Assembly: GCA_036660635.1 (NCBI GenBank)
Contig: JAVXAF010000002.1
Coordinates: forward strand, 23,657-87,656
From: Clostridia bacterium
Lineage (GTDB): Bacteria > Bacillota > Clostridia > TANB77 > CAG-465
Direction of reading: 5' to 3'
Length of the DNA stretch: 64,000 nt
Both the position numbers and the translations under genes were made by a program. Under the pieces are notes generated by a model that saw only the letters and a list, made by a program, of their open reading frames with translations, did no database searches and was not told the DNA's origin. Positions 37,914 through 41,619 of this stretch are shown in pieces. Positions within the stretch are counted from its first letter, which is position 1. Each line of letters starts with the position of its first letter.

Positions 37914-38369
37914 ATGGATAATGCTCAAAAAGCAATAATGATAGGCGTAGGTCTATTCATAACAATTATTATCATAGCTGCCGTTATGCTTATAACAGGA
38001 ATGGGTCAAGATATGATAAATAATTCACAAAGTCAAGTGTCAAATATTTCATCAAGTCTACAAGCACAATTAACATCTGATTTTGACGGAACAACAGTTA
38101 CAGGTGCACAAGTTGTATCAGCAATAAAAAGATATTATACTGATGAAAAGATGGCCTTAACAGTACAAGCTGTTGCAGGTAAAGTAACTAAAAATTATGG
38201 AAAAGTTGCTATTGATGGCAAAAAAAATGGAGCAATAGAAAAAATAGGTACTTTGACTAATACAACAGATGTAGACAATTATGTGCCTTCAACTGCAAAG
38301 TACACAGCAAATTTACTTAAGGTTAACGAAGTAGTTATAGGTATAAAATTTGAAAGACAAGCAAATTAA
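37914..38369 (+). CDS. Flp-like pilin paralog 1 (candidate major subunit), near-leaderless
   Basis: MDNAQKAIMIGVGLFITIIIIAAVMLI. The AQKAIMIGVG stretch aligns by eye with the Flp mature N-terminus ATAIEYGLI, but only 3 residues precede it and EY is replaced by MI. It has the strongest RBS in the locus (AGAGGAGGAAAG). Confidence 0.6.
   Translation: MDNAQKAIMIGVGLFITIIIIAAVMLITGMGQDMINNSQSQVSNISSSLQAQLTSDFDGTTVTGAQVVSAIKRYYTDEKMALTVQAVAGKVTKNYGKVAIDGKKNGAIEKIGTLTNTTDVDNYVPSTAKYTANLLKVNEVVIGIKFERQAN
37920..37991 (+). repeat. Conserved 72-nt 5' module shared with the second pilin gene (38612-38683)
   Basis: Codons 3-26 of the two genes differ at only two positions, both synonymous third-position changes (GGC/GGT, GCC/GCA). 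Confidence 0.85.
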
Positions 38370-38373
38370 TTTC

Positions 38374-38412
38374 TTAAAGGTATATAATTATACAATAGTT
38401 ATATACCTTTAA
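38374..38412 (+). terminator. Hairpin after pilin paralog 1 (possible attenuating terminator)
   Basis: Perfect 12-bp stem TTAAAGGTATAT / ATATACCTTTAA with a 15-nt loop. The T tract after it is weak. Confidence 0.5.
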
Positions 38413-38536
38413 TGTTTAATTTGAATTTTAAAGATTTTATGCAAAGTAAAAACTACAAGAAAATTACAATGAATTTTAAAATAGTTAATATAGATAAAAT
38501 ATATAACTTAAAAGTAGTAGGTTATTTTATCTATAT

Positions 38537-38573
38537 TGTAAAAAGTACATATTTAAAATATATACTTTTTACA
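38537..38573. promoter_or_regulatory. 16-bp inverted repeat (TGTAAAAAGTACATAT-n5-ATATATACTTTTTACA) upstream of pilin paralog 2
   Basis: Read directly from the sequence, 15 of 16 positions complementary. It lies 33 nt upstream of the second pilin start. It could be an operator or an RNA hairpin. Confidence 0.3.
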
Positions 38574-38605
38574 GTATAGATTAGATTTTTAAGGAGATAG
38601 CTCTT

Positions 38606-39133
38606 ATGGGAAATGCTCAAAAAGCAATAATGATAGGTGTAGGTCTATTCATAACAATTATTATCATAGCTGCAGTTATGCTTATTGCAGGTATGGGACA
38701 AGATATTATTAACACTTCTAATAAAGAAGTATCAAATATTTCATCTAATTTGCAAGCACAACTTACAGTAAACTTTGATAATAAAACTATGACTGGAGCT
38801 GAAGTAATTGCAGCGGTAAAGACATATTATATGTATAATGATTTAGCAGTTGCAGTCCAAAAAAAAATGGATCACCCGGTTGGAGATGGAGCTATATATT
38901 GGCCTGGTGAATTTAATTATTATAGTAAAAAAAGAGCAACAAGCCAAGAGTCTTTCATTGAAAAATGTGGCTCGCTGTATGATAATAAAGATCAAATCAA
39001 GATTTTTAAACTAACAGATAAAAGCAATAAAGAAACTTATGTAAGACCAAATGAAAAGTTCATTGCTAAATTATTTAAAATGAATAATATCGTATTAGGA
39101 ATAGCTTTTATAAGAACAGAATACTTAAAATAA
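38606..39133 (+). CDS. Flp-like pilin paralog 2, near-leaderless
   Basis: MGNAQKAIMIGVGLFITIIIIAAVMLI is nearly identical to paralog 1 over about 30 aa. Shared SNISSxLQAQLT and TGAxVxxAxKxYY follow. The middle is divergent and longer. The C-terminal beta-strand motif is shared (NxVxGIxFxR). Confidence 0.6.
   Translation: MGNAQKAIMIGVGLFITIIIIAAVMLIAGMGQDIINTSNKEVSNISSNLQAQLTVNFDNKTMTGAEVIAAVKTYYMYNDLAVAVQKKMDHPVGDGAIYWPGEFNYYSKKRATSQESFIEKCGSLYDNKDQIKIFKLTDKSNKETYVRPNEKFIAKLFKMNNIVLGIAFIRTEYLK
38612..38683 (+). repeat. Second copy of the conserved pilin 5' module
   Basis: See 37920-37991. Confidence 0.85.
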
Positions 39134-39167
39134 ATATATAAATCTAACAAAGGGGTGGAAATAATTT

Positions 39168-39632
39168 ATGAATGATTCAGCAATTAAAGCTATAATGATT
39201 GGCGCAGGTACACTAATAGCTATCATTACAATATCCCTTGTTTTAAATTATTATAACACGGCAAGGCAGACAGTACAAAACATTGGGACAGGCCCAGATA
39301 TTGCATATAATTATAGGGAAGATATAAAAACCATATTACTAAGGGCAAATGGTAAAACAGACCAAAACAAACCTACTATAAAAGGTGTAGATGTTAAAAA
39401 TATGTTAAATTATTTTTATGATAACAAAGAATTTAAAATCAATGTTTCACTAAATTATAGTTTAACTCAATCAAATAAAATAAATTATAAGAGAGATAAT
39501 GTAAACAATAATAAAGAAGAATACAATATAATAGTAAATCAATTAATTTTAGATCAAGAGTTTACAATTGAAAGAACAACTATTACTGAAGAAGGATTAG
39601 AAAAAACTAATATAAATTTAGTAGGACAATAA
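39168..39632 (+). CDS. Flp-like minor pilin paralog 3
   Basis: MNDSAIKAIMIGAGTLIAIITISLVL carries the same N-terminal motif (A-x-K/Q-A-I-hydrophobic-x-G). The remainder is divergent. Confidence 0.5.
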   Translation: MNDSAIKAIMIGAGTLIAIITISLVLNYYNTARQTVQNIGTGPDIAYNYREDIKTILLRANGKTDQNKPTIKGVDVKNMLNYFYDNKEFKINVSLNYSLTQSNKINYKRDNVNNNKEEYNIIVNQLILDQEFTIERTTITEEGLEKTNINLVGQ

Positions 39633-39643
39633 GGAGGTAAAAA

Positions 39644-40690
39644 ATGGAAGACAATTTACAAAGAATATTTGCAATTTTGATGTCAGTACTTGTTTTTTTC
39701 ATGTTACCTTTATATATTGCTTTTGAAAAAAAAGATGATATTTCATATGCACTAGCTCTTAAAATAACATCTAATTTTGTAGATAATGTAACCTCAAAAG
39801 GATATATTACAAAATCAATGTATGATAGTTATATAAGTGATCTTGCTATAACAGATAATGTCTATGATATAAAATTAGAACATTTGTCAAAAACCTATAC
39901 ACCAGTTGCACGTGCTCATGAGAAACTACTTGGAGATTTTAATAATGATGGAGAGGTTAATAGAGAGGATATAAAGAATTTATTAAACTTAATTGGTATA
40001 ACAACAGATATACAATTTCCAACAAGTGCACAAGATACAGAAGGGTGGAAAAAATTAGTTGATACAATGCCAACTTTAATATTAAAAAATGGTATGAATA
40101 TTATTAAAAAATTGTCGAATCTAACAACACTTGGTGAAATTACACAATTACTTGGAGACTTTAATAATGATGGAAAGGTTAATGAAGAGGATATATTCGA
40201 TTTTATTAATAAAATTATTAATGTTGCAAAAGGAGAAAAAGCAAAAACTGCTACTTTTCCATATTTAATATGGAAAAATGATCCAAATATTCAAAAAGAG
40301 TATCCAAATGCAACTATAGAATATAATACATCCATAGTACGATATTCAAATGATCAAATTTTAGGAGTATGTGACAAAGTGCTAAGAGAACCTATAAAAG
40401 CATATGCAGATATGTCAAAGTATGAGTATAAAAACTTAGATATTAAAAACTTAAATGATTCAACTATGTACTCAATTACAAATAAAGAAAAAGTTGGAGT
40501 GTATACGCTAAAAAGAGGCGATGAGTTTAATGTTATAATTCAAAATAAAAATACAACAACTGCCAGCGTTTTATTTAATGCTTTAACTTTAGGAGCAAAT
40601 TCAAAAAATAATACTAAAGTATATATTAATTATGGTGGAACGGTTAAAGGCGAAGAATATAAAAAAATTTTTAAAAACAATAATATATAG
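39644..40690 (+). CDS. TM-anchored pilus-associated protein with two dockerin-like calcium-binding repeats; paralog of 41637-43439
   Basis: The N-terminus IFAILMSVLVFFMLPLYIAFEKKDDISYALALKITSNFVDNVTSKGYITKSMYDSYISDL is homologous to the next large gene. LLGDFNNDGEVNREDIKNLLNLI and LLGDFNNDGKVNEEDIFDFINKI match the dockerin/EF-hand repeat pattern GDxNxDGxVNxxD. Confidence 0.6.
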   Translation: MEDNLQRIFAILMSVLVFFMLPLYIAFEKKDDISYALALKITSNFVDNVTSKGYITKSMYDSYISDLAITDNVYDIKLEHLSKTYTPVARAHEKLLGDFNNDGEVNREDIKNLLNLIGITTDIQFPTSAQDTEGWKKLVDTMPTLILKNGMNIIKKLSNLTTLGEITQLLGDFNNDGKVNEEDIFDFINKIINVAKGEKAKTATFPYLIWKNDPNIQKEYPNATIEYNTSIVRYSNDQILGVCDKVLREPIKAYADMSKYEYKNLDIKNLNDSTMYSITNKEKVGVYTLKRGDEFNVIIQNKNTTTASVLFNALTLGANSKNNTKVYINYGGTVKGEEYKKIFKNNNI

Positions 40691-40735
40691 AAAAATAAAT
40701 AATAATAACTTGAAAAGAAAAAGGGGGGTGTTGGT

Positions 40736-41137
40736 TTGGACGAAAATGCAAATAAAGCAATTTTGATAGGTGTAGCTATTTTTATTACAATAGCAATAAC
40801 TACAGGAGTAATTTATACAATTGGAAAAATTAAAGAAGTATATAAAGAAGTTTATGAAACTGACACATTACTCTCAAATAGGTTCGATGAATTTGACCAA
40901 TATAATAATGCTGAAAAGTCATTTATAGATTTTATAAATACTATAAAAAAATATGCAGATAATTCAGAAGTAAAAGTATTTTTAGGTGACCAGACAAATG
41001 AAATAATTAGTATAGCAAATCTAATTCCCGGTACTGTGATAACAGATGAAATAATACTAAATTCAGAGCTAAAATATACAACAACATGTGAGTTGAAAAA
41101 TGGAATATATGAAATAAGATTTTATAAAAAAAATTAA
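40736..41137 (+). CDS. Flp-like minor pilin paralog 4
   Basis: TTG start after a GGGGGGTG RBS. MDENANKAILIGVAIFITIAITTGVIY carries the family N-terminal motif. Confidence 0.5.
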   Translation: MDENANKAILIGVAIFITIAITTGVIYTIGKIKEVYKEVYETDTLLSNRFDEFDQYNNAEKSFIDFINTIKKYADNSEVKVFLGDQTNEIISIANLIPGTVITDEIILNSELKYTTTCELKNGIYEIRFYKKN

Positions 41138-41169
41138 AATAATACTAAAGAATAAGGAGGTGGTAGATA

Positions 41170-41619
41170 TTGGAAAATTCAGCAATTCAAGCAATATTTA
41201 CAGGAGTTTATGTACTAATATTTGTTGCAGCACTAACAGTAACAATGTTTTTGTTTCACTCTATAACTGATTATGCAGATAAAGCTTATGAATTTGGAAC
41301 GAAAAAAGCAGAAGGATCAGTCACAATATCTGCTCCAACAAATAGATATAGAATTTTAAATAGTAGTGAAGTAATTTCATATTATTTTAATTACGTAAAA
41401 AGAGATTTATATGGTACAGATTCTATAGCCGGCACAGATAAAACAAAATATAGTATAACACTAGAAAAAGATAATGTAGAAATGACAGAGAATTTTGTAG
41501 ATGAAATTAAAAAGGATAAAAAATATATACTTATTTATAAAGGAAAAAATGAAAATACAAATGAAGTAAATATAACAATAAAAGAAGCAACAGAGGATGA
41601 AATACAAGCAGAATTTTAA
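41170..41619 (+). CDS. Flp-like minor pilin paralog 5
   Basis: TTG start after an AAGGAGGTG RBS. MENSAIQAIFTGVYVLIFVAALTVTMF carries the family N-terminal motif in its most divergent form. Confidence 0.45.
   Translation: MENSAIQAIFTGVYVLIFVAALTVTMFLFHSITDYADKAYEFGTKKAEGSVTISAPTNRYRILNSSEVISYYFNYVKRDLYGTDSIAGTDKTKYSITLEKDNVEMTENFVDEIKKDKKYILIYKGKNENTNEVNITIKEATEDEIQAEF

Follow-up and report, generated by a model that had tools for sequence, protein, structure and literature searches.

Pilin-like proteins with very short N-terminal tails in a putative, remote Tad-type filament system of gut Clostridia and Firmicutes plasmids

Can a type IV filament be assembled from subunits that begin almost directly with their membrane helix and show no canonical site for a prepilin peptidase? 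Leader cleavage by an A24 aspartyl peptidase is regarded as the defining step in the biogenesis of pili, type II secretion pseudopili, Com pili and archaella. The question is raised by five open reading frames (ORFs), here named pil1 to pil5, in a 64,000-nt stretch of a Clostridia bacterium genome (assembly GCA_036660635.1, contig JAVXAF010000002.1, positions 23,657 to 87,656; G+C content about 27%), which was analyzed as a whole and is called the window. All five lie on the forward strand, exactly at the coordinates and with the N-termini given by the original prediction. The presumed major pilin gene, pil1 (37914-38369, 151 aa, MDNAQKAIMIGVGLF), is the first gene 3' of a platform gene, and its product starts with MDNAQKA/IMIGVGLF, where the slash follows the alanine discussed below. 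Its tandem paralogue pil2 (38606-39133, 175 aa, MGNAQKAIMIGVGLF) starts with MGNAQKA/IMIGVGLF. Three minor pilin classes are represented by pil3 (39168-39632, 154 aa, MNDSAIKAIMIGAGTL, MNDSAIKA/IMIGAG), pil4 (40736-41137, 133 aa, MDENANKAILIGVAIF, MDENANKA/ILIGVA) and pil5 (41170-41619, 149 aa, MENSAIQAIFTGVYVL, MENSAIQA/IFTGVY), the last two with TTG start codons. We propose that the set comprises one major pilin, tandemly duplicated, and three minor ones. With a probability of roughly 0.75 we take the five proteins to be filament subunits of a divergent Firmicutes branch of the Tad/type IV filament superfamily. The pilin assignment is well supported by gene context, conservation pattern and predicted shape.

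The five proteins share one layout: 4-7 polar residues form a tail, about 22 hydrophobic residues follow, and about 110 aa make up the C-terminal part. A GGAGG-type Shine-Dalgarno sequence was found 6-10 nt 5' of each start codon and an in-frame stop 1-13 codons 5' of it, so that the listed start is in each case the earliest possible one. Because of these upstream stops and the well-placed ribosome-binding sites, a longer leader is impossible. The same arrangement was seen across the family, where the hydrophobic stretch begins at residue 4-7 in 139 of 143 independent cluster representatives (50% identity). Thus, the short N-terminus is no gene-calling artefact, and the very short tail that had been predicted for the five proteins is a property of the whole family.

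The canonical prepilin signature is absent from these tails. Neither a Gly directly before the hydrophobic helix nor a Glu at +5 was found in pil1-pil5 when both possible registers were checked. Compared with a class III signal, the conserved hydrophobic helix is present, while the basic leader, the Gly at -1 and Glu5 are all absent, the tails being acidic or neutral and a [K/R]-Ala-[I/L] motif being conserved instead. The earlier statement that the Glu-Tyr pair is missing is therefore correct in either register. Its companion, that the -1 residue is Asn or Ser and not Gly, is right about the glycine, but in the Flp A-I-E-Y-G register the -1 residue is Ala4. Likewise, the proteins had been described as lacking the peptidase signature, which is true of the canonical one; this description overlooked a strongly conserved [K/R]-Ala-[I/L]-x-x-Gly motif. 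Among 256 family members, Ala stands directly after the last Lys or Arg in 249, and Ile or Leu follows that Ala in 251. In an alignment of all five classes, Ala7 and Gly11 are the sole invariant columns besides Met1. Members of the pil5 class have Glu or Gln in place of the Lys/Arg before the invariant Ala, and pil3 orthologues, found in 65 loci, begin with M-[DE]-[DE]-x-[KR]-A-[IL]. Homologues from cultured hosts start with MSTNASKALYF, MGENARKALYM, MESPVVKAIIL, MDSVTKAIIF, MDSPVVKKIFL and MNNASSALKVAAG. The family has a signature of its own, [K/R/Q/E]-Ala-[I/L]-x-x-Gly. Canonical Tad pilins fetched in the same way carry basic leaders of 15-25 aa ending in Arg-Gly or Gly-Gly, most with a Glu at +5 or +6 (for example ...NKKGG/LSQLL, ...NDERG/ALTLLEW and ...SDRG/SATIELV).

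Two readings of the signature are to be weighed. It can be read as the membrane-interface anchor of a protein that is not cut. In the second register the invariant Ala7 takes position -1 with Lys or Arg just before it, and [K/R]-Ala-[I/L] could then represent positions -2, -1 and +1 of an atypical class III signal peptide with a leader of 7-8 residues. The strict archaeal class III pattern, [KRDE][GA][ALIFQMVED][ILMVTAS]x3, was also tried. It matched 5 of 258 members and is unusable as support; it fails in the other 253 because of the Gly at +4.

The pil proteins form a large family without a database name. A search with pil1 returned 822 homologues at E<=1e-3, none functionally named apart from one evident misannotation. 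One of the 822 carries a precomputed Pfam entry, which our own Pfam scan of that protein failed to reproduce. A full HMMER scan placed the family at 1,439 or more clusters at 50% identity. The comparison with Flp_Fap and class III signal profiles that had been suggested with the original prediction gave no match to pil1-pil5 at E<=1 in the Pfam and NCBIfam models, and neither did the models for N_methyl and TadE. As the Flp_Fap model also missed 41 diverse relatives at this threshold, and as proteins of 133-175 aa with a globular domain compare poorly with Flp peptides of 50-80 aa, the label Flp-like is not supported. Faint echoes were seen between pil5 and the archaeal pilin UpsB (NCBIfam, E=0.034) and between pil proteins and the profiles of haloarchaeal DUF7287 (E=0.06) and the His1 capsid (E=0.03-0.05).

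Conservation is concentrated at the N-terminus. In the pil1 family the first 27 residues or so are near-invariant, the remainder falls to 45% identity, and 12 of the 16 invariant columns lie within the first 25 residues. The middle of the proteins is rich in indels and variable loops, and a C-terminal beta-hairpin is conserved. At the DNA level, the tandem genes pil1 and pil2 share 92% identity in their first 96 nt, of which the first 78 nt contain 3 differences, and 65% identity further on. The sequence of this homogenized 5' end (37914-38010 and 38606-38702) suggests gene conversion or strong constraint. AlphaFold2 predicted for pil1 a helix at residues 2-57 followed by a small alpha/beta head with strands at 60-63, 81-85, 129-137 and 140-148 and two short helices (mean predicted local distance difference test score, pLDDT, 82).

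This conservation pattern bears on two other identities of the proteins. They might be exported by the Sec pathway, the hydrophobic stretch being a type I signal peptide removed by signal peptidase I, and a lepB gene does lie about 8 kb 3' of the pilin gene on C. botulinum p12/29. No conserved A-x-A site was seen in the hydrophobic stretch, which spans about 22 residues and is the best-conserved part of the protein; such conservation would not be expected of a signal peptide that is discarded, and lepB is missing from the other loci. We consider Sec export highly improbable. The proteins might also be bitopic machine components comparable to PilN/PilO or GspL/GspM, which never leave the membrane; the true pilin would then be another protein, or no long fibre would be made. 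Each would then consist of a short tail in the cytoplasm, a single membrane helix, a coiled coil and a small alpha/beta domain. This identity is favoured by the lack of a canonical cleavage site and by the AlphaFold2 model, whose long helix with alpha-beta-beta elements behind it loosely recalls, in our own reading, the PilO/GspM fold. One family member also has a weak match to Pfam PilN_bio_d (E=0.033). Against this, Foldseek found no PilN, PilO, GspL or GspM structure, five paralogues including a tandem duplicate are present, and the minimal nine-gene module of Paenibacillus (see below) holds no other candidate pilin. A membrane helix that is the most conserved part, joined to a hypervariable outer domain with large indels, is the pattern of a pilin and not of an alignment complex. 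The near-invariant helix and hypervariable outer domain fit a filament subunit better than a membrane-bound machine part, and we regard the bitopic-component identity as unlikely.

The gene context supports the identification as filament subunits. Five tightly packed genes precede pil1 on the same strand and encode a SAF-domain protein, two ParA/MinD-fold proteins, an ATPase and a platform protein. The first (31243-32298, forward strand, as are all genes of the module) is a CpaB/RcpC-like protein with an N-terminal membrane helix and a SAF domain. It matched Pfam SAF above the cut-off (E=2.6e-7) and NCBIfam pilus_cpaB below it (E=1.7e-7). The gene is present in 71 of 76 related gut loci, and a "SAF domain-containing protein" is annotated at the equivalent place in plasmid loci. 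The next two genes encode Z1 (32320-33030), a degenerate ParA/MinD-fold, TadZ-like protein with a weak match to Pfam CbiA (E=0.0024), and Z2 (33030-33845), a second protein of this kind with weak matches to NCBIfam BcsQ/ParA/MinD models (E 0.0025-0.03). Each is conserved in 71 of the 76 loci; Z1 has an orthologue on pTHECO01, and the Thermobacillus composti orthologue of Z2 is annotated as ParA.

The single ATPase gene of the locus (33871-35763) encodes a divergent member of the CpaF/TadA family of secretion ATPases, 630 aa in length, in which an N-terminal extension of about 270 aa opens with a predicted membrane helix. Its best match in the PDB was Caulobacter CpaF (E=1.3e-7 over the 273 residues 274-546), and an archaeal GspE-type structure, 2oap, scored more weakly (E=0.08). 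Conserved stretches of CpaF aligned with the Walker A sequence GEQGCGKTT and with ILGE and THHA, which we read from this alignment as the putative Walker B motif and His box. The TadA-family model TIGR03819 matched at E=1.3e-5, and Pfam T2SSE at E=9e-4, below its cut-off. Identity is 75-100% across the gut clade and 37-59%, over 93-96% of the length, to plasmid genes annotated as TadA/CpaF. The predicted membrane helix at the N-terminus (33871-33960, MSIAFIFNIILIILLIGFVIAFFVYK) is unusual, as this motor is normally soluble. The pBsph and Paenibacillus marchantiae copies have it too, and the annotated T. composti and C. botulinum copies do not.

The platform gene (35770-37827) encodes a polytopic protein of 685 aa, in which two TadB/TadC-like (T2SSF-like) domains appear to be fused. 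A TadB/TadC profile was built from 10 proteins of canonical plasmid Tad loci and compared with the platform by hhalign. Residues 94-328 matched with 91% probability (E=9e-7) and residues ~503-681 with 88.5% probability (E=2.7e-6). Several homologues are named "GspF domain-containing protein" in UniRef, and the AlphaFold2 model is all-helical (pLDDT 80). No match to Pfam (16 members scanned) or to a PDB profile was obtained, and no internal duplication between the two halves was detected. The relationship to TadB/TadC is, on these profile scores, remote and not close. In summary, the locus holds what marks a type IV filament system, a CpaF-like secretion ATPase and a two-domain, remotely TadB/TadC-like platform, together with the Tad-specific combination of SAF/CpaB-like and ParA-type genes (weak matches for the latter) beside a single ATPase. 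We conclude from these similarities that it probably encodes a remote Tad-type machine with a fused TadB-TadC platform.

The module is widely distributed. Among species-representative genomes the pil signature was found in 72 loci, all from uncultured gut or animal "Clostridia bacterium" metagenome-assembled genomes or Clostridium sp. CAG bins, and the module genes are conserved in 55-75 of the 76 gut loci. Loci with full-length relatives of the ATPase were found on six plasmids: Thermobacillus composti pTHECO01, Alkalihalophilus pseudofirmus pBpOF4-01, Paenibacillus polymyxa pPPM1a, Lysinibacillus sphaericus pBsph, C. argentinense pRSJ17_1 and C. botulinum p12/29. They have the same gene order, followed by a wall-binding protein and a DUF5704 protein. 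The wall-binding protein varies with the host, with SLH domains in most Bacilli and cell-wall-binding repeats in C. argentinense. All plasmids except pBsph, five in total, have a GGDEF diguanylate cyclase gene behind the module, and three of these have a gene for an HD-domain phosphohydrolase nearby, which hints at control of the plasmid modules by cyclic di-GMP. Coupling-protein and relaxase genes adjoin the module on some of the large plasmids. The pBsph-like plasmid p1593 is conjugative (PMC13239906), and the C. argentinense plasmid with the module is named in a paper on bont-carrying plasmids. In gut Clostridia and Paenibacillus the module is chromosomal and has no conjugation genes beside it. 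A minimal version of nine genes lies on the chromosome of Paenibacillus marchantiae, and the list of homologues points to many more Paenibacillus species.

In the window and in the human-gut contigs examined, the module stands between a gene for an S11 carboxypeptidase (dacB-like, 29732-30952) and spoIID (49729-50763). Behind spoIID in the window come an M23 peptidase gene, an 84-aa helix-turn-helix-type ORF, which we read as spoIIID-like, and an actin-like gene, read as mreB/mbl-like. The position between dacB and spoIID taken alone would suggest a role in sporulation. This hint was set aside, as the surroundings of the Paenibacillus and plasmid copies are unrelated.

Several results weigh against the assignment of the five proteins as subunits of a Tad-type filament. 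Neither the pilin family models nor the PDB sequence profile gave a significant match to the pil subunits. When the pil1 model was compared with the PDB by Foldseek, the best E was 0.26 and no pilin was among the top 50. The Foldseek search with the platform model returned nothing significant either, the best PilC/GspF match being at rank 25 with a probability of 0.23. As Foldseek found no link to PilC/GspF, the platform assignment depends on profile-profile scores of about 90% probability.

If the five proteins are filament subunits, it has to be asked how their N-termini are processed. All ORFs of the window and of the 76 gut loci were searched for a G-x-G-D-x-K-type motif combined with a count of membrane helices, which is a crude test. 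No A24-type polytopic peptidase was detected in the 64-kb window by this motif scan, by Pfam and NCBIfam models run on the locus proteins or by inspection of the other polytopic ORFs, in agreement with the original prediction. Nor was an A24 gene found within 10-14 kb of the module in the 76 gut loci, the six plasmids and one Paenibacillus chromosome (~85 loci). A five-helix ORF of 236 aa at 61431-62141 was considered as a SpoIIGA-type aspartyl protease and rejected; it has no family match and none of the Asp motifs that such an enzyme should have, and the next gene encodes SigK, not SigE.

On this basis we put the use of the pil subunits without any A24 cut at close to an even chance, if slightly short of it. 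In its fuller form, which we give somewhat less than even odds, this would be a lineage that does without the prepilin peptidase. Its subunits would be competent for assembly as synthesized, with an uncharged or acidic tail of 4-7 residues, and would be extracted from the membrane and polymerized with Met1 retained. The [K/R]-Ala-[I/L]-x-x-Gly motif, and not the pairing of the N-terminal amine with Glu5, would then organize the filament core. Two observations count against the absence of cleavage. An invariant Ala after Lys or Arg is the appearance expected of a cleavage site. In addition, loci without a peptidase have a precedent in MSH, where all loci lack the gene and are thought to borrow one (PMC6668835); by this analogy a missing gene near the loci is weak evidence for the absence of a cut.

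The alternative is that an unlinked or housekeeping A24 peptidase of the PilD/ComC/TadV type cuts after Ala7 and that ordinary assembly follows. The leaders removed would be MDNAQKA, MNDSAIKA, MDENANKA or MENSAIQA, of 7-8 residues. A leader of 6-7 residues with Lys at -2 is usual for type IVa pilins, and some A24 enzymes tolerate Ala at -1. The regularity of the site (249 of 256 members for the Ala, 251 for the following Ile or Leu, and invariance of Ala7 and Gly11 across the classes) also speaks for such a cut, as does the MSH precedent. However, Gly is practically never found at the site in more than 250 members, which would be odd for a borrowed, Gly-preferring enzyme across Bacilli and Clostridia, and Val, Phe, Pro or Lys occupies the site in some members. 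The tails are not basic, as a leader should be, but acidic or neutral, and the pil5 class has Glu or Gln at -2. No peptidase gene accompanies the roughly 85 loci, although these include self-transmissible plasmids that carry all other parts. Three further anchored proteins of the operon lack the [K/R]-Ala-[I/L] motif altogether. Weighing both sides, we regard cleavage after Ala7 as a serious candidate with somewhat less than even odds.

Three anchored proteins are encoded among and behind the pil genes. The first (39644-40690, forward strand) belongs to a class with the motif P-L-Y-x-x-F-E-[RK]-[QK]-D-D and is conserved in 69 loci. Its N- and C-terminal parts are homologous to proteins of 169-184 aa at the equivalent place in plasmid loci, and Pfam Dockerin_1 matched above its cut-off (E=5e-6). 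Two dockerin/EF-hand-like calcium-binding loops (residues ~98-118 and ~167-188; GDFNNDGEVNREDI and GDFNNDGKVNEEDI) are inserted in the core. A second protein of this "ERQDD" class (41637-43439) is homologous over its N-terminal 180 aa to the same plasmid proteins and has a PKD/Ig-like extension (PKD-type Pfam models, E 4e-5 to 0.013, below the cut-offs). The third, of 391 aa (43452-44627), starts with MKITDFALVF and has no family match in Pfam or NCBIfam. It has orthologues in 63 loci as well as in every plasmid and Paenibacillus locus. Its start, MKITD[FL]xL[IV]F (43452-43481), is shared by the versions of the gut clade through to those of Alkalihalophilus and Paenibacillus marchantiae. With Met1 as position 1, residue 5 of this class is acidic or polar and residues 6 and 8-10 are hydrophobic, which loosely resembles the N-terminus of a leaderless mature type IV pilin.

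Two larger proteins complete the module. A protein of 490 aa with a Lys-rich N-terminus and one membrane helix (44643-46115) is conserved in 55 loci and has no family match. By positional analogy it would occupy the slot of the SLH or cell-wall-binding proteins in the plasmid versions. It is followed by a Sec-type secreted protein of 1142 aa (46116-49544), in which residues 812-1088 show a relationship to the DUF5704 proteins found at the end of the plasmid modules (blastp against the pTHECO01, pBsph and p12/29 proteins, E=1e-17 to 8e-7). This protein was matched in 15 loci and is missing from the minimal Paenibacillus module; the low count is due in part to the position of the gene near or beyond the edge of the 10-kb flank examined.

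Apart from the homologies cited above, we infer the working of the system as follows. The subunit would be inserted in the membrane so that its short tail faces the cytoplasm and its variable C-terminal head of about 110 aa the outside. The CpaF-like ATPase, acting via the fused TadB-TadC-like platform, would then extract subunits from the membrane, and the conserved N-terminal helices would stack them into a surface fibre. The SAF/CpaB-like protein and the two TadZ-like proteins may place the machine and help the fibre across the wall. For the other anchored proteins and the DUF5704-related protein, a part as tip, adhesin or wall anchor is probable. Adhesion or aggregation is the likely role, and on conjugative plasmids the module may stabilize mating pairs.

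The spacer of 236 nt between pil1 and pil2 is occupied by very stable, A+T-rich hairpins at 38362-38423 and 38530-38575. A perfect stem-loop with an 18-bp stem lies on the forward strand directly 3' of the pil1 stop codon (38374-38412), and the RNA fold of 38360-38610 has a free energy of -60.9 kcal/mol (z=-6.7 against shuffles). From this predicted fold, the stem-loop may act as an attenuator or terminator, which would increase the proportion of the major subunit. A consensus terminator scan missed it because the stem is A+T-rich. A 55-aa ORF at 38412-38579 lies inside this hairpin-rich spacer and was treated as probably spurious.

Elsewhere in the window, a tRNA-Pro(UGG) gene was found at 4820-4895 and a T-box leader at 14692-14921 (Rfam, 131.8 bits), 5' of an 869-aa ORF that resembles an aminoacyl-tRNA synthetase, probably ValRS. 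An agr-type quorum-sensing cluster at 20964-24000 encodes AgrB (Pfam E=8e-32) and, on the opposite strand, a GHKL histidine kinase and a putative LytTR-type response regulator. The five-helix protein of 236 aa mentioned above belongs to no known family and is encoded directly 5' of the SigK gene (61431-62867 together).

Taken together, a large pilin family without a Pfam model or database name is tied to a remote Tad-type motor, and the peptidase gene does not travel with the module, even on self-transmissible plasmids. Our literature search found no publication describing this pilus system. If the subunits are uncut, they would form the first peptidase-independent member of the type IV filament superfamily; if they are cut after Ala, they would represent a new substrate class for A24 enzymes. 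The cleavage question is directly testable, since cultivable hosts exist (Paenibacillus, L. sphaericus with pBsph, C. botulinum and C. argentinense). Among uncultured Clostridia of the human and animal gut the system is common, and it may bear on gut colonization, aggregation and plasmid transfer in Firmicutes.

The system can be compared with four groups of known filaments. With the thin pili of IncI1 plasmid R64 (type IVb) it has in common that large plasmids, some of them conjugative, carry a type IV filament module. R64, however, represents another branch of the superfamily with other pilins, and the module described here is also chromosomal, without conjugation genes. Type IVa and Com pilins (PilA and ComGC, processed by PilD and ComC) are likewise found in Firmicutes hosts, and the possible leader of 6-8 residues would suit them; the M-D-N-A-Q-K-A of pil1 resembles the M-N-T-L-Q-K-G of Neisseria PilE. 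In contrast to these pilins, the pil proteins have no Gly at -1, no Phe or Met at +1 for N-methylation, no Glu5 and no N_methyl match, and their machine is of the CpaF/TadBC type and not of the PilB/PilC type.

Archaeal type IV pili and archaellins, which have class III signals and are processed by PibD, FlaK or EppA, also combine a hydrophobic N-terminus without Glu5 with a globular domain. In one possible reading they share a short leader whose last two residues are Lys/Arg (-2) and a small residue (-1). They differ in that no significant sequence or fold match was obtained, that the ATPase is nearer to CpaF and that the hosts here are bacterial. Tad systems are themselves thought to derive from archaeal Epd-like pili (PMC6668835).

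Tad/Flp (type IVc) systems form the fourth group. The pilins described here have 130-175 aa and a globular head, whereas Flp peptides have 50-80 aa, and they lack the basic leader of 10-25 residues, the Gly at -1 and the Glu5-Tyr6 pair. In addition, TadB and TadC are fused, the ATPase is extended by about 270 aa with a membrane helix, two TadZ-like genes are present, no TadV is encoded at the locus, and no Pfam model is matched by the pilins or the platform. A different and more canonical Tad-like locus was seen on C. botulinum pCB111 (11337-13515). It encodes five small pilins with KKGG/LSQ-type leaders and no Glu5, a SAF protein, an ATPase and two separate TadB/C-like proteins annotated as hypothetical. 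The likeness to Tad/Flp lies in the machine. The order of CpaB-like SAF, ParA/MinD-type, ATPase, platform and pilin genes is the same, CpaF is the best solved relative of the ATPase, both platform halves match TadB/TadC profiles, and a single ATPase is present without a secretin, as in the Tad systems of single-membrane bacteria.

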